Shown piece by piece: positions 3,673 through 61,444 of a stretch of DNA of 64,000 nucleotides. Source of the stretch: a virus; IMG/VR virus record IMGVR_UViG_3300031251_000010, positions 1 to 64,000 of that record; one strand, given 5' to 3'. The translations under genes were made by a program, and so were the position numbers. Numbering within the stretch: the first letter of the stretch is position 1; each line of letters starts with the position of its first letter. The notes under the pieces were generated by a model, which saw nothing but the letters and a program-made list of their open reading frames with translations, was not told where the DNA came from and did no database searches.

Positions 3673-6600
3673 GGCTTCGGAAGTCCTGACGCATAGGTGC
3701 GCGAGCGGGCGTTCTGCTCGGTGTGTATCTCGGATTTCAGTGCAGCCGGATCCATTCCAACGTTCCCCGTGATGTTGATCGACTGATCCACGCTCGGCGG
3801 CCCTTGTGTCTGGCTGTTTGGCAAGATGTCGCTGACTTGAGGCAGCGCGGAGGCGAGCGTGTCGCCCACGGACGAGACGCTGCCGCCGTCACCAAAGTTC
3901 ATTCCGCCAAGGCCGCCGTCGTTCCCGCCAAGCGGGCCTCCAGCTAGCCCGGGGAAGTTGCCCTTCTGTGGGCCACCGAAGGCGTTCTTCGCCAGGCCAC
4001 CGAGGTAGTTCGCGCCCCCGGTGAACAGCTTCCAAATACCCCAGTCCATGGGGTTACTGAAGACCTCACCGTCGAAACCGAGGGCATCCATCGCCCCGGA
4101 GAGCATGTCCTTGCCGAAGCTCTGCACATCGGGCCCACCGCCCTTTCCGCCCTTGTTGGCGGTGAACTTGCCGCGTTGAGCTTCGCCGAGGTCATCGCGG
4201 GCGTCACCGGCTTCGCGGCGTGCCTTAGCGGCGTCGTTCTTCGCCTTATCGACCGCGTTCTGTGCCCGCTCTACTTCGAGATCAGTTGCGGCGGCGGTCA
4301 ATTCTTTCTGCTTCGCCTCAGCCTCTTTGACCCGCAGATCGGCGTCCTTCACGCGCTGGTCGGCGTCAGTGACACGTTCCTGCGCTTCGCGCACCTGCTT
4401 GGCGTCGGGCCGGTAGTAGCCCGATTTGCCGTCCTCGTCGTAGCCGGGGGTTGAAGGCATCCGTTGGTAGCCGTATCCGCTTACACCGCCGCCACCGCCA
4501 CCGAGTCGGCTGTACGCGGCGGACGCTGCGCCAGACTTGGACTGGATCTCGGACTTGTATGCCTGCCGGCCACCGGAGTATGCGGACTCGGCCGAAACCG
4601 CGCCGGGCGCCTGCTGGAGCCAGAAGATGTCCTTCCAGATGTCTTTCGATGAGCCTCCACTACTGCGCTTCTCATCTAGGCGGTTAAAGAATTCCCCGAT
4701 GTTCTTGTTGGGGTCGTCACGGCCGCCATATGAGTTGTCCTGCTGGAACACCCCATGCCAGGCACCTCCGCCGCCCGATGCCTTGGGGTTCAGCGCGGAC
4801 TCCTGCATCGCCGTGGACAGGACCGCGACTGCCTCTTCCTGGCTGTAGCCGCGACGGGTGGCTTCGCCGAGGATCGCGGAAGCTACGTCATCCGGGCTGG
4901 AGTTTGGTGTCAGCTGCCCGAGGCCCACGGCCTGTTGCTGTTGCCCGCCGCCGCCGGGCATCTGTCCGTAGTTGCCGATTTCGTGTGCGGCGGCAACGTG
5001 GATGTGGTCGCCGTGCTGCTTCATGGTTGATTCGCCGTAGATCCGGCGGGCGGCTTGGCCTTCGGCGTGTTCGCCGTTGACGTTGTACCAAACCTTTTGT
5101 GGGTCATCGAAAATAATCTGGGTCAGCTGGTCTCTCATCGACCAGATCGCATCGAGGTTTCGACGTGAGGGATCTACGTCGATGGCCATGCCCTTGGGGT
5201 GGAATCCGCCGTCTACCCCGTGATCGGTTTTGGCGCTGGTGAGTATTGCGCCTGGATTGGATTCGCGGAGTGCGCGCAGGATAGACAGGTTTATCGTGCC
5301 GCCGCCCATCCTGTTGATTTCGTCCTGGGAGACGTTGTTGAAGCCGCCTTGGTCGAAAACGCCGAGCATGTGGCCGGTCTTGGCCCAGATGTCAATGGAC
5401 CGCTTGCCGCCCTTGATGGGGATGAAAGCCTCGCCACCAGTGGAAGGTTCGGCCCACTGCACCAAACCAGCTCCGGCGACGGGCGGTTGGAACATCGCCG
5501 TGCGGGGCAGCTTGCCGCCAGCGAACGACGCCACGGAGTCCCACACGTCGTAAATGCCGCCATTGGCGCGGGGCGCGGCGGGCGGCGGCAGCATGAGAGT
5601 GCTCCAGTCGCCCGGCGGTGGCGATGCAGGAGCGGGAGCCGTGATGTTCTTTTTGAAGTTGTCCCAATCCTCCTGCGCCTGCTTGGTATCCACCGTCACC
5701 GGGACTTCGAGCTTCTTGCCGCCTTGCTTCTGCCTCCATGCGTCGAGGGTCTTCTGCCCCTCTTCGGTGTTCGCGTTGACTTCGAACTTGCCGTCAGGCA
5801 GCTCCTTGACTTGAAGGCCGATCTTGGCCAGCTTTTCAGTGACCTCCGGCGCATTCGAGTCGATGTAGACGGTCGTCTTGTCGTCGCCGAGGGCGGCCTT
5901 TGCCTTGCCGAGTTTTTCGGTGAACTTGAGTGCTTGGGCCGTCTGGTTACCGGCTTCATCGAGCTTCTTGTTCAGCTCGTCAGCGCCGCTGTTGGCGGCG
6001 TCCTTCCATTGCTTTGCCTTCTCGAACAGGCTGTCTGGGCCCGACTGCCAAGCGAAAAAGTCCTGTGCGCGTTTGAAGTTCTGTTGCGCTTTGTCGTCGT
6101 TGCCGAGGATTTGATCCCAGACGCCACGCAGCTGCATCCACGTACCGGCCACATCACCTGAGGCGGCGAGTATGTCCCCGACCGCTGTCATCATGTCGGC
6201 GGCGAAGATGATGACGTGCCGCCCGGCGTCTACGGCGCCTTCGGCCATTAGCGAGAAGAACTTCACGAGGTCGGATTGGTGCTCGCTCACCCAATCACCA
6301 AGGCCACCAAGGGCTTCGTTCGTGAAGTCGAATACCTCGCTGGAGAGCGGCTGCAAGGCCCCAGCGGCCTTGTTCTTGAGTATCTGCCACTGCTGCGCGA
6401 AGTCATCGGTGGCGTCCACGTCTTCTTGGATGGTGGTGCCGGTATGCGACAGCGCCTCATCGAGCTTCTTGACATCGAATACGCCGCGCCGGATTGCATC
6501 CACGAACTGCAACCCGCCTCGACCACCAAACAGCTTGTTGCCGAGGTTGATTGCGCCAGCTTCATCGCCCACATCGATGAGCCGCTGGATTTCGTTGGTG

Positions 6601-26469: not shown

Positions 26470-26859
26470 TCATGGTTTGATCACCGCGATTATGTGCTTT
26501 CCGGGCATCATGTCGGCCAGCTCGGTCAACGCGTTGATGTGGGTGTGGGCGTCGTCGGGGAGCGGCGTCACGGCCAGCTCCGCGCCATAGGTTCCCTCCA
26601 GACCGGCGAGGTACGCCATGTATGCGTCGGGGTCCGGGAGGTCGGGTACGGCGATGTCGGCGAGCAGCGGATGCTGTTCCAGCAGGGCTGGTTTGCACTC
26701 ACCTGCGGCACGAGGCAACTGATGGGTGAACAGGTTGTCGCCGGTCATGAAGTTGAGGAGTTCGTAGATGTCGCCGATATCGTGCGCGAGCATCCGGTCG
26801 GTGGTGACGGTCAAGATGGCGCCGAGGCCGAACATGCGTGGGGCGGGTGCGGTCATCAC
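26470..26859 (-). CDS. conserved phage protein, paralog of 51285..51662
   Basis: LLNFMTG...HQLPRA...C...LLEQHP motif shared with 51285..51662. Confidence 0.6.
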   Translation of the reverse strand: MMTAPAPRMFGLGAILTVTTDRMLAHDIGDIYELLNFMTGDNLFTHQLPRAAGECKPALLEQHPLLADIAVPDLPDPDAYMAYLAGLEGTYGAELAVTPLPDDAHTHINALTELADMMPGKHIIAVIKP

Positions 26860-27632
26860 TTACTCCAATGTCGTTGGTACATATTGACCAGCCACGCGTT
26901 GATCCGATCCCAGTCCGGCCCATCCGGCAGAGACGGGATCGATGCGTGGTACTCAAGGCTCACGGCCAGAGTGTCAAGCCAGCGCTTCACCTCAGGGAGC
27001 GGGATCTCGCCGCGCCGAACGCCCAGCAGTGCATCGCGATGCGCTTGGAGCATGGGTAGGTGCACCCTTCGCTCAGTGAGGAGTTGGATGCCTTGCATAC
27101 CGAGGCGCAGTGCGTGATACGCGTATTTGGTGTCGAACCCGTACTGCTCGATGAGTTCGGGCCGGTTGGTGTGCCGGTGGTGAGTGCCCTCCAGGCCCTC
27201 CCGCTGAGAGTTCAAGTAACCAAGGAACTTCCGTCCGGCCTGCTTCGTGACGAACAGCTCTGACGCTGCCTGGAGCTCGGCTCCAAGTTGAGTTTTCACG
27301 GTCAGCTCTTCGTCGGGTATCCAAAGCATCAGCAGCACCGAGGGGTTACCGTCTGCGGCCAGCCGCGTCCACTTCCGCAGGCTATAGATGCACAGATCGA
27401 GATCGCCGGGGCCGGAGCGGGCGCCGTCCGGCTGGGTGCGGTAGATGTACTGCTCGAACTTCTCCAAACCGATTACGGCTTCGGGTGGTTCGATGCAGAT
27501 GCCCATTTCGTCGCGGTCGTCGGCGCCGGTCGTGACACCGTGCAGACCGGAGCCGACCTGCCCGCGCAGGATCGTGTTCTCGTCCGCGATAACGCGGTGC
27601 CGCTCCGTCCCGTGGCGCGCTTCGGTACTCAC
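26856..27632 (-). CDS. Pol-beta superfamily nucleotidyltransferase (RlaP-like)
   Basis: GSGLHG-x5-DDRD, GNPS, YGFDTKYAYHALRL motifs. Confidence 0.8.
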   Translation of the reverse strand: MSTEARHGTERHRVIADENTILRGQVGSGLHGVTTGADDRDEMGICIEPPEAVIGLEKFEQYIYRTQPDGARSGPGDLDLCIYSLRKWTRLAADGNPSVLLMLWIPDEELTVKTQLGAELQAASELFVTKQAGRKFLGYLNSQREGLEGTHHRHTNRPELIEQYGFDTKYAYHALRLGMQGIQLLTERRVHLPMLQAHRDALLGVRRGEIPLPEVKRWLDTLAVSLEYHASIPSLPDGPDWDRINAWLVNMYQRHWSK

Positions 27633-27638
27633 GGCTGA

Positions 27639-27902
27639 TCAATGCCTAGCGACCGGGGTTCGGTCGTGTGGGCCACCGGTCTTCTTCTCCAGTAGTTCGA
27701 CTTTCCGTCCGCTCTCTCGATGTTCGAGTTCCGGCGCGTCGAACACATACTCGACCAATTCGCCTTGCCCGTTGAGGCCCTTCAGGTTTACCCGCTCGCA
27801 GCCATGCTGGAAGAAATACACAGCGCTGGCCGTGCCCTCGAAACCCGTTGCGGTGTCGCGATATTTCTGTCCGAGTTCGATCTCGGTATTGAACGTGGTC
27901 AT
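27639..27902 (-). CDS. hypothetical protein
   Basis: IELGQKYRD..TGFEG...GC motif, small conserved phage protein. Confidence 0.6.
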   Translation of the reverse strand: MTTFNTEIELGQKYRDTATGFEGTASAVYFFQHGCERVNLKGLNGQGELVEYVFDAPELEHRESGRKVELLEKKTGGPHDRTPVARH

Positions 27903-28123
27903 GGCCGCATTCCTCCGGTTCGTTTGTCGATGATTTTCTGGATGAGTTGGGGGCTGCATTTCACGGCGGTGGCGAGGGTGGCGTGGGTCCACTTCTCGCG
28001 CTCGGCCGCCCAGAGTTCACGTACGAGCCGGTCGCGCTGGCTCCGGTGCCGACTGGCAGAGTCGCGGTCTTCCCCGGCCAGCCGGTGGTGCTCGCGGGCT
28101 TGCTGTGCCCTCGGGTCCATCAA
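27899..28123 (-). CDS. small HTH DNA-binding protein
   Basis: WTHATLATAVKCSPQLIQKI HTH-like segment. Confidence 0.55.
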   Translation of the reverse strand: MMDPRAQQAREHHRLAGEDRDSASRHRSQRDRLVRELWAAEREKWTHATLATAVKCSPQLIQKIIDKRTGGMRP

Positions 28124-28551
28124 CGCCCCCCGATGCCTACGCGGCGGCGGGATATCTTCTCGATCGCGGTGATGGCTTCCTCGCCTGGGTCTTCGATCTC
28201 GGAGCTGCCGTGCTCCGCTGCGTCACGGCCGGACTCGAACAACGGCACTGGGCTCACGTACTCGAATGCCGCCTGTACGTCCTCGGAAGACAGCGCGCCC
28301 GTGACGGCCCCAATGCGTATCGCGAGTAGTTCCTCGCCGCCGTGGCAGCCGACCCAGCCCGCACACAGCCGGGCCGCCGCGTCGGCGGCGTCGGTCTGGT
28401 GGCACAGGAAGAGGCCGGTCGGCTGCTCCGAGGTTGGGGCGTCGTAGGCGATAAGCTTCTGGTACTCGGTGGCGTGCCACACGCCGCTGGGTACGTCCTC
28501 CCGGTAAGGGCACGACGCGCAGGGGCGCGGAGCAGGGCCACCCACGCTCAC
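28120..28551 (-). CDS. Cys-rich protein (DUF6283-like)
   Basis: PCASCPYR...F.CH...LCAGW motifs. Confidence 0.65.
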   Translation of the reverse strand: MSVGGPAPRPCASCPYREDVPSGVWHATEYQKLIAYDAPTSEQPTGLFLCHQTDAADAAARLCAGWVGCHGGEELLAIRIGAVTGALSSEDVQAAFEYVSPVPLFESGRDAAEHGSSEIEDPGEEAITAIEKISRRRVGIGGR

Positions 28552-28725
28552 CTAAACACCAACCGTGTCGGAGTCGCGATCTGGATGTATGGATTCCGAA
28601 TCCCAGTGGGTTTCAGCGTCTACATGCCCCGAGGTAAATCCTCCACGAAGTTGTCTCGCAACGTATTCCACGTACTCGGCAACAGTGTCGCCGTCGCCGG
28701 GTACGTGGATAGTGATGGTTGCCAT
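28552..28725 (-). CDS. small hypothetical protein (57 aa)
   Basis: manually translated MATITIHVPG...VGV*; fills the gap after the Ro60 gene. Confidence 0.45.
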   Translation of the reverse strand: MATITIHVPGDGDTVAEYVEYVARQLRGGFTSGHVDAETHWDSESIHPDRDSDTVGV

Positions 28726-28727
28726 GG

Positions 28728-30428
28728 CTACAGGTCGCCGCGCGCGAAGTCCGAGATGAGCTGCGGTACAGCGCTATCGAACCCGGACACGTCCAGCTGG
28801 CGCGGGTCCGTGGGATTAGCGATGGTCTGCCGACCGCCGGTCATCGCGACAACCATCAGGCTGGTATCCAGACCGAGCTTGTTCCGGTACTCGGTGAGCG
28901 CCTGGTGCGGATGGATGCTCCCGTACCAGGTTTCGTTGTCGGTGAGGATCACGATGGCGTCGTAGGAACGCTTCTGCGCCTTGGCCCACACCATCGGTAG
29001 CGCGCAGTCCGTGGCGCCCATGGGCAGGTCGCGGGTGTACCGGCACACGTCATCAAGGCGGCGACGCGGCGAGATGTCCAGCTCTGTAATACCGGGTGCG
29101 TTGAAGCTGCCACGAGAGCCTGCGGTGAATCCGATGATGTCGTGGCTGGGCTCCACGTTGGCGATCACCAGTGCGAGCGCGGCGGCGGCCTCGCGGCACG
29201 TGAGGGGCATCCCCGAGATGGCCGCGCACATGGAGCCGGAGATGTCCAGCGCCAGCAGGGTCCGCTTACCCGAGGGCTCGACGGCGCCGTAGGCGTTGTA
29301 GAACGCCGCATCCAGCGCGTCAACGATGCGCCGGTTCGGCGTCCAGGCGGACTCACCGCGCGCCGAGTGCCCGGAGGCGTAGGTGCGCTGCGCGACAAGG
29401 ACGTTGACCGGGTGGACGCGGCCCTTCCGTAGCCGCTCGGTGTCCTGGAGCTGCGCGGTGACCCGGCTGGCGAGCTGACCGTTCAGCACGCCGAGGCGGG
29501 TCAGGCGGGGCAGCTGTCGCATGAGGGCGGTCTGCGGTAGGCCGTGCTCGATCAGCGCTTCCCAGATCGCGGGCTCGGTGAGAGCCTTGTCGGGGAAAGC
29601 TTCCCACGGCAGGCCGTTGCCCCGGCGGATGATCGCCAGCCACTCCTTGGCGGTGGTGGCGCGCTGCGCGGCCTCGTAGTCCGCGATGATGGCGAGCGGG
29701 TGCCCGTCAGCAAGTTCCACATTGGGCAGCTTCGGTAGCGTGGGGTTGCGCTCTCCGGCCTTGAGCTGCTCCGGGGTGAGGAGCGGCTGCTTCCAGTTGT
29801 AGTCGTTCAGGCCCTTGCCGACAGCCCAGTTGAACGCCATGCGGCGGGCCGGGTCGGCGGTGCGGGGGCCACTGAGCCGGAGCATGTCGCGGTGGGTCCA
29901 GCCGTCGCGCTGCCGGTACTTGACCAGCTGGTAGGCGAGCCGGTCCACCGGCTTGTCCAGGTACCAGCTGGAGACGGCGCGCTTCATCGCCGGTCCCCAA
30001 CCCCGGAACTGCTCCATGTACTTGGTGAACAGGTACAGGTGGGTGGCGGTGCGCGCGACTCGGGGCAGCGCAGCTGCGGCGGCACGGCGGCCATCCACGT
30101 TCTCGGCGGCCGACGCAATCGCGAGCGCGAACAGGGCCGGGTTCTGCTTGGGGGCGCGTCCAGCCTCGGAGACCTCAACGATCTTCTGCACGAGGGTCAC
30201 GGGATCGGTTGCGGCGAGCCGGATCACGACATCGGCAGCGTCGCGGGTCAGATCCTCGGCGGAGGTGTAGTAGGTGCCGCCGGTAGTACCGAGCGTCAGG
30301 AACCGGTGCAGCCGGGTCCAGTCGTCGGCCTGGAAGGTGTAGCCCCCGGCGGCGTTCTTGACCTGGCGCGGGTCCGCCTTCTGGGACTGGGGGGTGCGCC
30401 GCGTGCTGATCGAGGATAGAACGTCCAC
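28728..30428 (-). CDS. rsr: Ro60 / TROVE-vWA RNA-binding protein (Rsr ortholog)
   Basis: NAAGGYTF, RFLTLGT.GGTYY, KYRQRDGWTHRD, ALMRQL, RVHPV TROVE motifs; vWA MIDAS DISGSM, TDCALPM, TDNET, SGFD. Confidence 0.95.
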   Translation of the reverse strand: MDVLSSISTRRTPQSQKADPRQVKNAAGGYTFQADDWTRLHRFLTLGTTGGTYYTSAEDLTRDAADVVIRLAATDPVTLVQKIVEVSEAGRAPKQNPALFALAIASAAENVDGRRAAAAALPRVARTATHLYLFTKYMEQFRGWGPAMKRAVSSWYLDKPVDRLAYQLVKYRQRDGWTHRDMLRLSGPRTADPARRMAFNWAVGKGLNDYNWKQPLLTPEQLKAGERNPTLPKLPNVELADGHPLAIIADYEAAQRATTAKEWLAIIRRGNGLPWEAFPDKALTEPAIWEALIEHGLPQTALMRQLPRLTRLGVLNGQLASRVTAQLQDTERLRKGRVHPVNVLVAQRTYASGHSARGESAWTPNRRIVDALDAAFYNAYGAVEPSGKRTLLALDISGSMCAAISGMPLTCREAAAALALVIANVEPSHDIIGFTAGSRGSFNAPGITELDISPRRRLDDVCRYTRDLPMGATDCALPMVWAKAQKRSYDAIVILTDNETWYGSIHPHQALTEYRNKLGLDTSLMVVAMTGGRQTIANPTDPRQLDVSGFDSAVPQLISDFARGDL

Positions 30429-30453
30429 CGTGTGCTCCTTGCTGGGTTAGGTA

Positions 30454-30528
30454 GCGCGGGCGTGTGAGTGACCGCCGGGGTTCATCCAGTTGCGAGGTTG
30501 GGGTAACCGACCGTCGTCCTGCTCGCGC
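30454..30528 (-). ncRNA. Y RNA-like unit 5 (short, no tRNA-like domain)
   Basis: conserved 5' GAGCAGGACG..GGTCGGTTA and 3' CCGG...CACACGCCC; terminal stem GCGCGAGC/GCCCGCGC. Confidence 0.6.
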
Positions 30529-30543
30529 CAAGGGGGTTCGGGT

Positions 30544-30664
30544 GATGTGGGCGTGTACGTGCTGACCGGGATTTCGCTTTACACCCGCACCGAGGCACGG
30601 GCGACAGGGGTCGAACCTGCATTAACCAATTGAGTGATAACCGACCGAGCGTCCTGCTCACATC
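30544..30664 (-). ncRNA. Y RNA (YrlA-like) unit 4
   Basis: same conserved ends; T-arm GCAGG-TTCGACC-CCTGT, closed acceptor-like stem, degenerate D-arm. Confidence 0.75.
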
Positions 30665-30699
30665 GAAAAGCTATGGAGTTATTGATGATTCGCGTAGGT

Positions 30700-30841
30700 G
30701 GTGTGGGCGTGTGATTGCTGACCGGGTTTTTAGGTGCTCTACCAAGCTGAGCTATACGGACGCACTACGCGCCCGCAGCTGGATTTGAACCAGCGACCAC
30801 CCGCTCCAGATGCGATAACCGACCTGCGTCCTGCTCACACC
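30700..30841 (-). ncRNA. Y RNA (YrlA-like) unit 3
   Basis: T-arm GCTGG-TTCAAAT-CCAGC, closed acceptor stem, then D-arm TAGCTCAGCTTGGTAGAGC. Confidence 0.85.
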
Positions 30842-30863
30842 GACTACTACGAAGCCTTGGGGG

Positions 30864-30999
30864 TGATGCGGGCGTGTGTGTGCTGACCGGGGTTAAGCGC
30901 TCTACCGACTGAGCTACAGCTGCCGAAACGGCTGACGGGACTCGAACCCGCGACCTCTCCATTAGCAAGTGGTAACCGACCTGCGTCCTGCTCGCATCA
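30864..30999 (-). ncRNA. Y RNA (YrlA-like) unit 2
   Basis: T-arm GCGGG-TTCGAGT-CCCGT, closed acceptor stem, then D-arm TAGCTCAGTCGGTAGAGC. Confidence 0.85.
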
Positions 31000-31022
31000 T
31001 CAAATGTGAAGTTGTATCCGGG

Positions 31023-31194
31023 GGATGGCGTGGGCGTGTGAGGTGCCTGCCGGCGTTGATCTTGGATCAATGCATTCGGCCGCTCTGCCACGTCCACCTG
31101 GTGAGCCCGAAGCTCTTACCCGGAGGACGGCGGGATTCGAACCCGCGATCTGATGATTTTCAGATAACCGACTCGCGTCCTGCTCACGCCATCC
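31023..31194 (-). ncRNA. Y RNA (YrlA-like) unit 1
   Basis: T-arm GCGGG-TTCGAAT-CCCGC, extended acceptor stem with TTCG-containing loop, Ser/Leu-type D-arm TGGCAGAGCGGCCGAATGCA; ends GGATGGCGTG/CACGCCATCC pair. Confidence 0.85.
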
Positions 31195-31217
31195 ATGTTT
31201 TGTTGACTACGCAAAGA

Positions 31218-31248
31218 ACTATACCTCAGTAATGCCTGTTCAGGGCAT
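31218..31248 (-). promoter_or_regulatory. putative promoter of the Y RNA-Ro60 operon
   Basis: -10-like TATAGT (31218-31223, minus strand) about 25 bp upstream of unit 1; imperfect palindrome ATGCCTGTTCAGGGCAT just upstream. Confidence 0.45.
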
Positions 31249-31367
31249 ATTTTTTGAGTAAATAGCTATTCGCTAGCCTGCGTCTCCTGCACCAGGGGAA
31301 GTATGCCGTCGCGCCCCTCCAGCTGGCTACCGATTATCGGCCAGTCGAAGGTCATGCGCCCTTGGGA

Positions 31368-31916: not shown

Positions 31917-32422
31917 TTGGCGTCGGCCCTGAACGTCTCCACACTCATGACTTTCCATTGCCCATTGAGTCGATACATGCTGTACCGGACCCGCGCTCCG
32001 GTGTAATAGTACATATTCTCCGGTTTTGCGTTTTTCTGGTCCTCGAATTCGGTGTAGACGAACGCATCGTAGACGAGATCGCCGCGCGCAAGAATGCCGA
32101 AATCGGCAATATGCATTGGCCCGTGGTCCAGTATCTCCGACGCCATCTCGCGGACATACCCCGTTTTATAGAACGGGTTGAGGTGTTCTTCGGCTATGCC
32201 AGTCGATAGCGATTCAAGGCGTTTGAGGTCACCAGAATTCAATGCATCGACATATTGCTCGATCACCTGGCGTACTTCTGCATCGTATTTATCCGATGTG
32301 GTGCTGGGGTGCTGCATGCACAGAACATAGGTCAGCAGCGAGGCGATGGCAATCGTGGCTACCCAGGCCACTCCGACCACCGCCGCGCGCCGACTAAATC
32401 TCTCGCGAAGGTAAGTAATCAT
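31913..32422 (-). CDS. membrane-anchored protein, candidate immunity protein
   Basis: N-terminal TM, NTF2-like pattern (YVDALNSGD...NGQWKV); coupled to upstream secreted protein. Confidence 0.5.
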   Translation of the reverse strand: MITYLRERFSRRAAVVGVAWVATIAIASLLTYVLCMQHPSTTSDKYDAEVRQVIEQYVDALNSGDLKRLESLSTGIAEEHLNPFYKTGYVREMASEILDHGPMHIADFGILARGDLVYDAFVYTEFEDQKNAKPENMYYYTGARVRYSMYRLNGQWKVMSVETFRADAK

Positions 32423-33885
32423 GCGGTAGGCCCCTTTTCAAGGCACTGGAGGGTGCTTGAATAGGACGGGACCGCCCAAATTCCCTCAACGAACTCTGTT
32501 ACCTGGAATCCTTCTTTGAACCGGCGAAAATAGTTCGACTGACCGCCGATGGATTGGTTGAGAGCGATATCCATGGGAAGCACTTGGCGGTCATCGACTG
32601 CTGTTCCACCCCATGTTAGATCCGGCATGTGGCCCGGCGCTTTGCCTTTAAAGGCATCTTCACCAAAGATTGCTATCGCCCTCTTGATATCGTCTTTTCG
32701 GCGGGTGTCCATGCCAGCGGTCGTACGTTTGACTACTATGCCGCCCTTTTCCTCATTCTTCTCAATCAGTTTATTTCCGCCGTTTATATAGTCCTTCATG
32801 CCGTCTATCTGGAATTGTGATGGGTTCTTGACATCCTTGGGGTAGCAGATCGGAACCCTGCCCTTGCAACCCGGCTCCCCGGTCTTGCACTCCTCGGAAA
32901 AGTTATCCATCCAAGGATCGATGTAGTCATTGCACACCTGCTTGGCAGCCGGGTTAGGTATCAGCTTGCACAGCGGATTCTGCGGCTTACGATCCGGTGG
33001 GCAGTCTGTACATTCAAGCGGCTCAATCGGCAAGCGGCCGGGAGAACGCTCACCGCCCGGTCCTAGTGTTCCGCCGCCGCCCTTGGGCTTGGGCAGCACC
33101 TCGTCGGCCGCGTCCCCAACCTGCTGAACGACGTCAGCGACCTGCCCGGCAGTCTCGGTCAGCTGGTCCATCTGCTGCGACATCGCCTGGCAGCGCTGCT
33201 GCCGCTGCTGGTCACCCTGGTCCTGCTGGTCCTGCTGGTCCTGCTGGTCTTGCTGCTCGGGCTGGTTCTGCTGCTGACTTTGTTGCGGCGACTGCTGCTG
33301 CCCCTGCTGTGGCGACTGCTGACCCTGCTGAGGTGAACTCTGCTGCGGCGCTTGATAATCAGGGTTCGGCTTACCCGGCCCCTGCGTGTACCCCGGCGCG
33401 GTCGAATAATCGGGAATCTGGGTACCGTGAGCGGGCTGATCCCAGCCCTGTTGGGGCTGTTGTCCGCCTTGCTGACCTCCGGCTTGTTGCCCGGCCTGCG
33501 GCGCGCCGGAATTGTAAATTGAGATCCCCGAATTCTGGTCCAGGGGCGGTAAGTTGTTGCCGCCCTGGTAATCCGGCATCGACGGCGGTTGCGCGGGCGG
33601 TTGGAACTGCGAGCCCCCGCCGTCGGTCATGCCGCCCGTAGGCCCAGGCGGGCCAGTCGGCTCCGCTCCCACCGTCGCCAACGTGGAGAACCCGCTGCCC
33701 GGCGCCGTGTGCAGAGTCGCGACCTCGACCGTGCCCGCCCCCACTGCCAGGACTGCGACCGCAACTAGTGCCGCACGCACCCGCTTCCTTGCGCGTTGAA
33801 CCTGTGGCTTGTTTGGCGGGTGTTGCAGTACTCGACACCAGTGTGATTTGCACTGGTTGCCTGGGGAGGGGTTGCCAGAGGCCAT
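32419..33885 (-). CDS. secreted protein with Gln/Pro-rich linker and putative HNH-like C-terminal toxin domain
   Basis: hydrophobic N-terminal segment, Q-rich linker, C-terminal GHMPDLTWGG...LNQSIGGQ. Confidence 0.55.
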   Translation of the reverse strand: MASGNPSPGNQCKSHWCRVLQHPPNKPQVQRARKRVRAALVAVAVLAVGAGTVEVATLHTAPGSGFSTLATVGAEPTGPPGPTGGMTDGGGSQFQPPAQPPSMPDYQGGNNLPPLDQNSGISIYNSGAPQAGQQAGGQQGGQQPQQGWDQPAHGTQIPDYSTAPGYTQGPGKPNPDYQAPQQSSPQQGQQSPQQGQQQSPQQSQQQNQPEQQDQQDQQDQQDQGDQQRQQRCQAMSQQMDQLTETAGQVADVVQQVGDAADEVLPKPKGGGGTLGPGGERSPGRLPIEPLECTDCPPDRKPQNPLCKLIPNPAAKQVCNDYIDPWMDNFSEECKTGEPGCKGRVPICYPKDVKNPSQFQIDGMKDYINGGNKLIEKNEEKGGIVVKRTTAGMDTRRKDDIKRAIAIFGEDAFKGKAPGHMPDLTWGGTAVDDRQVLPMDIALNQSIGGQSNYFRRFKEGFQVTEFVEGIWAVPSYSSTLQCLEKGPTA

Positions 33886-61024: not shown

Positions 61025-61444
61025 ATGAGCGCTATGAGTACGTTGTATTCGGTCCCAAACGAGACTTTGTCCCAGACGGTGGCCCGCCGAATCCGGGGGC
61101 TGCTCGGGGAGAAGCGCATCTCTCAAGCGGCCTTCGCCAGGCTGCTTGGAACCAACGTCGCCAGCATGTCTCGGCGACTTTCAGGCGATCACCCTATTGA
61201 TCTCGCCGAGGTTGAAAAGTACGCAGCCGCCCTAGGGGTTTCCCCAGAGCGGCTGTTGACTGGTCGGCCTGATGGGAATGACCCCGGTGGCCCAGGTGTG
61301 CGCCCGAAGGGATTCGAACCCCTAACCTTCTGGTTAGGGGTTCCCAAGTCGCCTGCCTCTTCCGAGGGAGCGATCACGGATCTCGGCGAGTATCGCAGGG
61401 CGCGTCGCAACACACCAACGCCGCAAGAACCCGCAGTAGCGTGA
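61025..61444 (+). CDS. immunity repressor (XRE HTH) containing attP
   Basis: ISQAAFARLLG....SMSRRLSG; divergent from Cro; C-terminus ...PAVA. Confidence 0.8.
   Translation: MSAMSTLYSVPNETLSQTVARRIRGLLGEKRISQAAFARLLGTNVASMSRRLSGDHPIDLAEVEKYAAALGVSPERLLTGRPDGNDPGGPGVRPKGFEPLTFWLGVPKSPASSEGAITDLGEYRRARRNTPTPQEPAVA
61298..61343. other. attP core (3' half of a tRNA, probably Arg) with 12-bp inverted repeat
   Basis: reverse complement CAGAAGGTTAGGGGTTCGAATCCCTTCGGGCGCAC is a tRNA variable loop/T-arm/acceptor 3' strand; GAACCCCTAACC-TTCT-GGTTAGGGGTTC. Confidence 0.8.

Follow-up and report, generated by a model that had tools for sequence, protein, structure and literature searches.

Two questions are raised by this locus: whether the small RNA genes in front of a phage Ro60 gene encode Y RNAs, and what a single Ro60 would do with several different ones. 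In a 76-kb temperate phage of the Mycobacterium type, five different small Y RNA genes stand in a row before the Ro60 gene. The locus was analysed within a 64-kb stretch of the phage DNA, referred to here as the window, in which the array occupies positions 30452-31194 of the minus strand, upstream of the Ro60 ORF (Table 1).

The array and its upstream region

All five units lie on the minus strand, 24-770 nt upstream of Ro60, and thus within the 4 kb on the same strand as Ro60/rsr that is typical of YrlA-type RNAs (Chen et al. 2014; RF02553). The spacers between them are 13-35 nt long and contain no terminators. An earlier, sequence-only reading of this DNA had proposed the positions and strand of the units, and both were borne out by motif counts and by matches to R1, a covariance model made from related units. 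GenBank annotates just one of the units, as tRNA-Thr. Coding ORFs across the array were considered and rejected, since relatives differ by insertions and deletions of 1-2 nt, which excludes coding. Two short contigs from a wastewater cDNA run fell on the array (30692-30918 and 31128-31263); this run was flagged as probably DNA, and another run guessed to be RNA had a flat depth like that of DNA. Neither was counted as evidence.

Table 1. Features of the Y RNA-Ro60 locus, numbered along the 64-kb window
Feature	Position	Strand	Description	Support (R1 match ends in brackets)
17-nt dyad/hairpin ATGCC-N7-GGCAT	31232..31248	.	over -35 position; terminator-like on + strand	
TATAGT -10-like hexamer	31218..31223	-	24 nt before unit 1; within GGTATAG	sequence
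Unit 1	31023..31194	-	172 nt; handle and nearly complete permuted class II tRNA-like head	R1 76.4 bits (31027-31190)
Unit 2	30862..31001	-	140 nt; canonical YrlA	R1 146.7 bits (30865-30998); Rfam YrlA full-length match 36.2 bits
Unit 3	30700..30841	-	142 nt; YrlA-type, 9-bp closed acceptor stem	R1 128.8 bits (30700-30841); Rfam YrlA 36.8 bits
Unit 4	30544..30664	-	121 nt; T arm, 9-bp closed acceptor stem, UA kept, no D arm	R1 79.0 bits (30544-30664)
Unit 5	30452..30530	-	79 nt; handle closing short irregular hairpin, YrlB-like	R1 48.9 bits (30453-30529)
AAGGAG ribosome-binding site of Ro60	30435..30440	-	11 nt after unit 5	sequence
Ro60 (Rsr) gene	28728..30428	-	566 aa; TROVE ring and vWA domain	Pfam
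Downstream genes	26470..28725	-	tightly packed, same strand	Pfam and PHROGs

The array was said to be flanked by a TATAGT -10 box and the downstream Ro60 gene, and both were located as described. A conserved leader, CAACAAAAC, follows GGTATAG, and the two elements are invariant in five close relatives and in a MabK prophage (only 77% identical overall). Judged from its sequence, the TATAGT region is the probable promoter of the array. A sigma-70 consensus scan found no promoter because the -35 element is poor. The 17-nt dyad, which is kept in relatives L004-L008 and not in MabK, could serve as an operator or as a terminator for the gene upstream. The search for terminator-like sites gave one hairpin only, on the strand opposite to the array, and none between the array and the Ro60 ORF.

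No terminator separates the array from the adjoining ribosome-binding site of Ro60. This might be expected if the array served chiefly as a structured leader at the 5' end of the Ro60 mRNA, through which Ro60 adjusts its own synthesis, and did not yield free RNAs. However, the M. smegmatis homologues accumulate as separate Ro60-bound RNAs (PMC4201824). Moreover, phages Forza and A3Wally carry units that are kilobases from Ro60 or downstream of it, so the leader position is not required. A leader acting only in cis is therefore considered very improbable.

Structure, family and number of the units

The composite 5' motif AGCAGGACG-N3-4-GTCGGTTA occurs five times in the window, in the array only, against 0.00 occurrences expected from shuffles. 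Each unit is closed by the 3' motif CACACGCCC, present in unit 4 as the variant TACACGCCC. The complementary outer stems that had been claimed were confirmed and extend into GAGC/GCCC with one A.C mismatch. Every unit has an outer stem of 6-10 bp plus GAGC/GCCC, and hence the pairing of 5' and 3' ends that in YrlA makes the stem bearing the Ro60-binding module. The resulting handle, which is the part kept in all units, consists of the terminal stem, an internal loop (AGCAGGACG / CACACG), the helix GGUCGG/CCGGUC and then UUA. The strings nearest to the published Ro60-binding motif GNCGAAN0-1G are GACGCAGG, with one mismatch, and the invariant GUCGGUUA; in M. smegmatis only the 5' strand of this motif is recognisable (Chen et al. 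2014, PMC4201824).

Because the published M. smegmatis YrlA probe sequence had no match among 201 genomes of the genus, phage ET08 served to calibrate R1. The model recovered the published ET08 YrlA at 91.7 bits and gave exactly five matches in the window, the next best having E = 0.82. When three whole mycobacterial genomes were searched, all full-length matches were at the rsr locus and the sole other match was partial.

The claim that the RNA structure is conserved was upheld by covariation in two alignments compared with shuffles. In a MAFFT alignment of 16 units, 96.9% of the cells were paired (86.0% in shuffles) and both sides had changed in 18 of 33 pairs (8.4 in shuffles); when the partners were slid, pairing fell to 34-44%. 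The corresponding figures for 60 distinct units were 96.9% against 83.4% in shuffles, with 22 of 32 pairs changed on both sides. Helix 1 was 97.4% paired, with changes on both sides in seven of nine pairs, and the T, acceptor and D helices were 96-99% paired with compensatory changes. RNAalifold applied to four unit 1 orthologues, which are near-identical, returned an energy-driven fold and no covariation.

An array of genuine tRNA genes was rejected as an explanation, since the order of the arms is permuted and ARAGORN found neither tRNA nor tmRNA in the window. The only match to the Rfam tRNA model straddles two units and, at 28.9 bits, falls short of the cut-off of that model. [quoted passage not shown] Besides the permuted arms and the absence of ARAGORN calls, compensatory changes have preserved the handle and every stem across the 60 distinct units and the linkage to Ro60 is maintained across Actinobacteria, all of which make decay extremely unlikely.

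Assignment to a known family was also examined with Rfam. At gathering thresholds there was no match in the whole window. The YrlA model did match units 2 and 3, but below its 69-bit gathering cut-off, and units 1, 4 and 5 were not reported. The published ET08 YrlA scores 37.4 bits with the same model and other actinobacterial units 36.6-42.2 bits, indicating that the cut-off excludes accepted actinobacterial members. The target of an M. smegmatis YrlA Northern probe (PMC4201824) matches unit 2 of relative L005 at 21 of 23 nt, and unit 4 contains, at its 3' end, an exact 15-nt core of the sequence that the M. smegmatis YrlA 3' probe targets.

The permuted domain of YrlA (T arm, closed acceptor, UA, D arm, no free CCA) is present in units 1-3. 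A tRNA-like insert had been claimed for four units; units 1-3 have all the arms, whereas unit 4 is without the D arm. The absence of an anticodon loop does not strictly hold for unit 1, which has an extra hairpin at the anticodon-arm position, its loop not being conserved in relative L004. Unit 5 has no tRNA-like part. Like YrlB, a short hairpin between YrlA and rsr, it is the last unit before Ro60; it keeps the handle, Ro60 binding is predicted, and counterparts are present in Sparky, BearBQ and MabK. By sequence and predicted fold, the five units are Y RNAs of the YrlA/YrlB kind, four of the YrlA type and one of the short YrlB type. The proposal of YrlA-type Y RNAs beside a phage Ro60 is thus supported by structure, by covariation and by the R1 match to ET08 YrlA.

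Each unit has a head of its own, and close relatives have exchanged heads with one another. In unit 1 the order is a variable-arm-like hairpin, the T arm, an 8-bp acceptor stem capped by an extension hairpin, a 3-bp D arm and the extra hairpin. Its D half matches nt 1-27 of mycobacterial tRNA-Ser(UGA) at 26 of 27 positions, with one inserted base, and its T half matches the same tRNA at 22 of 27; on this sequence match, unit 1 is a rearranged near-copy of part of a serine tRNA. Unit 2 consists of the T arm, a 7-bp acceptor stem closed by a tetraloop, UA and the D arm, and is 87% identical to MabK unit 2, 83% to Sparky unit 1 and 76% to ET08 YrlA. The head of unit 3 is swapped for different tRNA-like modules in relatives L007 and L008, that of L007 being closest to tRNA-Gln. 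Unit 4 is the most conserved unit of the lineage, with 90-91% identity to MabK unit 5 and L122 unit 6. Unit 5 is 81% identical to the last MabK unit and 66% identical to Sparky unit 2.

A survey of 80 actinobacterial rsr loci found two units in 37, three in 19 and four in 14. Two is the commonest count; the statement that such RNAs usually occur as one or two copies is weakened by the 33 of 80 loci with three or four. None of the 80 loci had five. Five to seven units were found only in one phage lineage, consisting of the present phage, five IMG/VR relatives and the MabK prophages of M. abscessus. Three or four units are frequent in rsr loci, and in M. smegmatis a single precursor encoded upstream of rsr is known to yield both YrlA and YrlB (PMC4201824); an array of five is therefore the top end of a continuum. 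The novelty of the array is smaller than had been supposed: no bacterial locus sampled reaches five, but the arrangement is known in mycobacteria and their phages. What is new here is the copy number, the swapping of heads between relatives, the tRNA-Ser(UGA)-like D half and a conserved unit without a D arm. Literature searches for Y RNA arrays or for names such as YrlC returned nothing on prokaryotes.

Neighbouring genes and possible function

The Ro60 ORF matched PF05731 TROVE (E 5.8e-50) and PF25045 vWA_Ro60 (E 4.9e-57), and the MIDAS motif D-x-S-x-S is invariant across six aligned phage Ro60 proteins. The downstream genes are a 57-aa ORF, DUF6283, a 117-aa ORF, an RlaP nucleotidyltransferase (26856-27632) and DUF7736. 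RlaP also comes after Ro60 in relatives L004 and L006-L008, and in five unrelated bacterial loci it immediately precedes Y RNA arrays. It is not an obligatory partner, since the array occurs without RlaP in the MabK relatives. Pfam and PHROGs identified no RNA ligase, kinase or phosphatase among the neighbouring genes. In vitro, RlaP repairs tRNAs that are damaged at the 3' end (bioRxiv 10.64898/2025.12.29.696909), and the adjoining RlaP gene favours a role in RNA repair or quality control over a pure decoy role.

From the sequence family, conserved structure, Ro60 linkage, copy number and head diversity observed here, we infer the transcription, processing, Ro60 binding and function of the array. 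With good confidence, it is proposed to be a polycistronic Y RNA set that is processed, docks on Ro60 through the handle, uses its heads as adaptors and serves RNA (tRNA) quality control or repair. The array is most likely transcribed with Ro60, and probably with RlaP, from the conserved upstream promoter. By analogy with M. smegmatis YrlA/YrlB, host RNases would cut the transcript into separate RNAs; unit 2, whose acceptor stem has 7 bp, is predicted to be processed in the manner of M. smegmatis YrlA. The ring of the phage Ro60 would probably dock on the constant handle of each RNA, and the variable tRNA-like heads may bring different tRNA-recognising factors or substrates to Ro60. RlaP would add nucleotides to damaged RNA 3' ends, the most likely outcome being phage RNA (tRNA) quality control or repair together with Ro60 and the Y RNAs.

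Conservation of the handle in every unit would suit a nuclease tether, in which the Y RNAs link phage Ro60 to host PNPase in a RYPER-like assembly that degrades structured RNAs of host or phage, and the heads only tune or stabilise it. This mechanism is established in D. radiodurans and S. Typhimurium (PMC4201824). Furthermore, the Ro60 of Thermus phage phiLo binds RNA and forms ternary complexes with Yrl1 or Yrl2 and host PNPase in vitro (PMC12135203). The tether leaves unexplained the diversity of the heads, their swaps between relatives, the tRNA-Ser copy and the linkage to RlaP, and we regard it as possible though rather doubtful.

The variation and exchange of the heads could instead reflect a decoy function, the heads being sponges or sensors for host tRNA-targeting toxins or defence enzymes, with a different tRNA type covered by each unit. 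The resemblance of the unit 1 D half to tRNA-Ser(UGA) and of L007 unit 3 to tRNA-Gln would fit, as would the toxin-antitoxin genes that adjoin the array in MabK relatives. However, the anticodon loop, which most known tRNA-targeting nucleases cut, is missing from the units, and the closed acceptor ends are unusable by CCA-end enzymes unless RNase P opens them first. The multi-unit design is also common in bacterial chromosomes, where counter-defence is less obvious. Decoys are on balance unlikely.

A more speculative proposal, to which we give little credence at present, is that the array is a panel of tRNA-species-specific mimics on one Ro60 ring, with unit 1 representing tRNA-Ser and the others other identities. 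The heads would have been captured repeatedly from tRNA genes and exchanged between prophages, and the panel would allow the phage to detect, absorb or repair attacks that toxin-antitoxin or abortive-infection enzymes, for example, make on particular host tRNAs, with RlaP rebuilding the damaged 3' ends. If this were true, Y RNA heads would be a fast-evolving counter-defence repertoire, and tRNA-specific enzymes would be indicated as the long-sought effectors of YrlA.

With five to seven heads per Ro60, among them a copy of the tRNA-Ser acceptor and D arm, nature supplies a set in which the recruitment of tRNA-binding proteins can be compared head by head. Current annotation understates the size of Y RNA sets in Actinobacteria and their phages. 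Moreover, the relatives include prophages of M. abscessus, a host of clinical relevance, so the module may affect the RNA metabolism of its lysogens.

Comparison with known systems

The tRNA-like domain of S. Typhimurium YrlA, known from a crystal structure, is permuted in the order AC stem, variable loop, T arm, closed acceptor, UA and D arm (bioRxiv 10.1101/312249). The phage units have the permuted layout, and the conserved UA before the variable region corresponds to GGUUA here, whereas the sequences are only weakly alike, with 36-37 bits to the Rfam model. In Salmonella the RNAs belong to an rsr-yrlBA-rtcBA operon with an RNA ligase; a ligase was not found beside the phage array. Ro60/TROVE neighbourhoods with the RNA-repair genes RtcB and RlaP have been described (Burroughs and Aravind 2016, as cited in PMC7824862). 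They resemble the present phage in bringing together Ro60, a tRNA-like RNA and the RlaP nucleotidyltransferase, and differ from it in that no ligase, kinase or phosphatase was found near the phage array and the RNA partner is multiplied five-fold.

Among phages, phiLo likewise has more than one Y-like RNA gene (Yrl1 and Yrl2) directly upstream of Ro60 (PMC12135203), but these are two simple stem-bulge RNAs without tRNA-like heads, from an unrelated lineage. ET08 and other cluster C phages have a phage Ro60 with YrlA directly upstream (Chen et al. 2014; RF02553). In ET08, however, there is one strong and one weak R1 unit, and the phage is a 155-kb lytic myovirus with many true tRNAs, compared with a 76-kb temperate type with no tRNA genes here.

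The M. smegmatis YrlA/YrlB pair (PMC4201824) has the same strand and the same position 5' of Ro60, with several RNAs per precursor. The order is also alike, with a short YrlB coming after a YrlA that has the T arm, a closed acceptor stem of 7 bp and the D arm, and the YrlA probe targets match phage units. There are two RNAs in M. smegmatis, in contrast to five here and six or seven in MabK-type prophages, and the phage array adds a head derived from tRNA-Ser, a unit lacking the D arm and variation of the heads among close relatives.

Organization and conserved structure of the array

Every Y RNA unit upstream of Ro60 (numbered in transcription order) begins with a stem strand of variable sequence, then AGCAGGACG-N3-4-GTCGGTTA, and ends with CCGG...CACACGCCC followed by a strand complementary to the 5' stem. 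These constant paired ends are referred to as the handle and the variable tRNA-like part as the head. The AGCAGGACG-N3-4-GTCGGTTA motif occurs five times in the window, always in the array, with none expected by chance. Motif counts and stem complementarity bore out the unit coordinates and stems quoted in the sequence-only reading.

Features of the array and its surroundings in the window
Feature	Position	Strand	Remarks
Unit 1	31023-31194	-	between TATAGT and Ro60 ORF
Unit 2	30862-31001	-	between TATAGT and Ro60 ORF
Unit 3	30700-30841	-	between TATAGT and Ro60 ORF
Unit 4	30544-30664	-	between TATAGT and Ro60 ORF
Unit 5	30452-30530	-	79-nt hairpin, between TATAGT and Ro60 ORF
Ro60	28728-30428	-	TROVE domain and Ro60-type vWA domain
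Dyad	31232-31248		17 nt, ATGCC-N7-GGCAT, A-run on one side
488-aa protein	32419-33885	-	two genes upstream of array
Weak match	61246-61354	-	inside repressor gene, E 0.82

The window represents 64 kb of a complete virus record of 75.8 kb with direct terminal repeats. The closest GenBank entries were the cluster MabK prophages of M. abscessus, prophiGD43A-5 and prophiT37-1, with 77% DNA identity over the array region; the papers on these prophages mention neither Ro60 nor Y RNAs. IMG/VR contains five close relatives, whose Ro60 proteins are 92-96% identical. In contigs of relatives from three runs the similarity ends at window position 31263, which, judging from these alignments, appears to be a mosaic or module boundary just upstream of the array promoter. 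The phage-conserved 488-aa protein lacks a Pfam match; it matches PHROG 30921, a family of unknown function, over its full length.

A MAFFT alignment of 16 units with tRNA-like parts, taken from the window, the two MabK prophages, IMG/VR relatives and phages Sparky and BearBQ, was folded by RNAalifold. The consensus comprised a terminal helix, the helix GGUCGG/CCGGUC, a T arm, a closed acceptor stem and a D arm, and at 18 of the 33 pairs one or more units had both bases changed. The proportion of paired cells was 96.9% as against 86.0% after shuffling, a value attained in 0 of 500 shuffles, and just 34-44% were paired when the partners were slid. Similarly, a model-guided alignment of 60 distinct units gave 96.9% paired (83.4% shuffled), with both sides varying in 22 of 32 pairs. 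Decay of the units is considered to have little likelihood. The possibility that the array encodes protein was excluded, since the array of a relative at 93-95% identity differs from the window by 1-nt and 2-nt insertions or deletions.

The spacers between units are 13-35 nt long and contain no terminator-like sites, and the Ro60 ribosome-binding site begins 11 nt past unit 5. A consensus scan called no promoter upstream of the array because of a poor -35 element. GGTATAG (holding TATAGT; TATAGC in MabK) and the leader CAACAAAAC are the same in every relative, amid divergent flanking sequence. Little credence is given to a role of the array purely as a leader in cis. The 17-nt dyad lies over the -35 position of the putative promoter of the array; the five close relatives keep it, while in MabK a TATACCGCGGTATA dyad sits there instead.

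Family assignment and the tRNA-like heads

A covariance model, R1, was built on the 16 units. R1 found exactly five matches in the window (146.7, 128.8, 79.0, 76.4 and 48.9 bits) and no further match better than E = 0.82; the match at that value represents a fragment of a tRNA and not a Y RNA. For mycobacteriophage ET08, whose YrlA is among those presented by Chen et al. 2014 (PMC4201824), R1 recovered that RNA with a score of 91.7 bits. Every full-length match in three whole mycobacterial genomes was at the rsr (Ro60) locus, the sole other hit being partial. Moreover, the units match the targets of the Northern probes that demonstrated M. smegmatis YrlA (PMC4201824): in one close relative (L005) the unit 2 orthologue agrees at 21 of 23 nt, and window unit 4 contains an exact 15-nt core at its 3' end. 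The Rfam YrlA model scored units 2 and 3 at just 36-37 bits (cut-off 69); since the published ET08 YrlA itself scored 37.4 bits, the low scores are a property of the Rfam seed, not of the units. Taken together, these comparisons indicate that units 1-4 are YrlA-type and that unit 5, which has the same handle, is YrlB-type. The order of parts agrees with that in the YrlA crystal structure (10.1101/312249): AC stem, variable loop, T arm, closed acceptor stem, UA and D arm. The identity and general architecture of the array are regarded as highly probable. In ET08, a small 'hypothetical protein' ORF (gp219, L011:2791-2964) overlaps the YrlA and YrlB-like matches (2690-2835, 2868-2939) and is probably a false gene call.

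The units fall into a conserved core (units 2, 4 and 5) and variable extras. Unit 2 is 87% identical to MabK unit 2, 83% to Sparky and 76% to ET08 YrlA, and units 4 and 5 are 90% and 81% identical to their MabK counterparts. In the orthology comparison no MabK counterparts were found for units 1 and 3, and none here for MabK units 1, 3 and 4. In two close relatives (L007, 2592-2729; L008, 2588-2728) the unit 3 head differs entirely, with other T, acceptor and D modules on an unchanged handle, which points to replacement of the heads by recombination.

The heads were compared with the 46 tRNAs of one Mycolicibacterium genome. Over nt 1-27 of tRNA-Ser(UGA), the D half of unit 1 (acceptor 5' strand and D arm) agrees at 26 of 27 positions and has a single inserted base; the best non-serine tRNA reached about half that score. 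The T half matched the same tRNA at 22 of 27. Two extra hairpins occupy the positions of the long variable arm and the anticodon arm, the loop of the latter not being conserved. Unit 1 thus amounts to a nearly complete class II tRNA in permuted, capped form, linked to the handle. In L007 unit 3 the D half came closest to tRNA-Gln, and the other heads matched several tRNAs about equally. Unit 4 has no D arm but retains the UA, the T arm and a closed acceptor stem of 9 bp; it is nevertheless the best conserved unit. A function of the tRNA-like heads as decoys is thought improbable.

Ro60, RlaP and a proposed role

Downstream of Ro60, the same strand carries a 57-aa ORF, DUF6283, a 117-aa ORF, an RlaP nucleotidyltransferase and DUF7736. 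In four close relatives RlaP also comes after Ro60; it is not present in MabK. Directly upstream of Y RNA arrays at five unrelated bacterial loci lies an RlaP homologue with 44-46% identity to the phage protein. These loci (L042, L057, L089, L080 and L027; Nocardioides and other Actinobacteria) are laid out as RlaP - Y RNAs - Ro60 operons, RlaP sharing the strand of the array and rsr in three of them, and no ligase was seen nearby. At damaged RNA 3' ends, RlaP enzymes attach one or two nucleotides, and they aid the restoration of damaged tRNA (bioRxiv 10.64898/2025.12.29.696909), and an RNA repair platform of Ro60, tRNA-like RNA and RlaP has been discussed (PMC7824862).

For all functional steps, we infer as most likely a mechanism in which the Ro60 message and all five Y RNAs would be on a single transcript. 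Processing would free the Y RNAs, the constant handle would dock them on Ro60, and the heads would serve as exchangeable adaptors towards tRNA-recognising factors; the module, with RlaP, would act in RNA quality control or repair. This adaptor role is proposed tentatively, as the likeliest of the specific roles considered. That the Y RNAs instead tether PNPase seems rather unlikely.

Copy number in Actinobacteria and phages

R1 matches (E <= 0.01) were counted at 80 rsr loci from across Actinobacteria. The 195 matches were distributed as no unit at 2 loci, one at 8, two at 37, three at 19 and four at 14; none of the 80 loci had five or more. With R1, two units each were found in phages Sparky, BearBQ, ET08, Myrna and Beuffert, three in tandem in A3Wally, and about four in Forza, dispersed within its tRNA array. 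Five units were present in the phage studied here and its five IMG/VR relatives, six in both MabK prophages and four IMG/VR contigs, and seven in one contig (L122). The sequence-only reading had taken one or two copies as usual; five is indeed at the top of the range, but is less unusual than assumed, two being the commonest number at the surveyed loci and many having three or four.

Several existing annotations overlap such units. In GenBank MW584167 (prophiGD43A-5), the tRNA-Thr(tgt) at L001:5374-5452 is not a tRNA but corresponds to the 5' portion of Y RNA unit 2, consisting of the handle, a variable hairpin CCA-CUUGUAA-UGG and the T arm; the remaining five units are without annotation. In Gordonia phage Forza, Y RNA-like matches (L131:5385-6221) lie downstream of Ro60 within a tRNA/tmRNA array, and a 47-bit match at 5531-5658, overlapping an annotated tRNA-Gln, may represent a Y RNA with the shape of a tRNA or else a tRNA called in error. 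Two Promicromonospora loci (L026 and L029) have, besides the units upstream of rsr, two R1 matches about 1.5-2 kb away on the opposite strand, which look like a second, divergently oriented Y RNA pair.

No description of prokaryotic or phage Y RNA arrays of this size was found in the literature searched, two key reviews lying outside its coverage. The array is real and well supported; it enlarges and diversifies a known arrangement rather than constituting a new kind of system.
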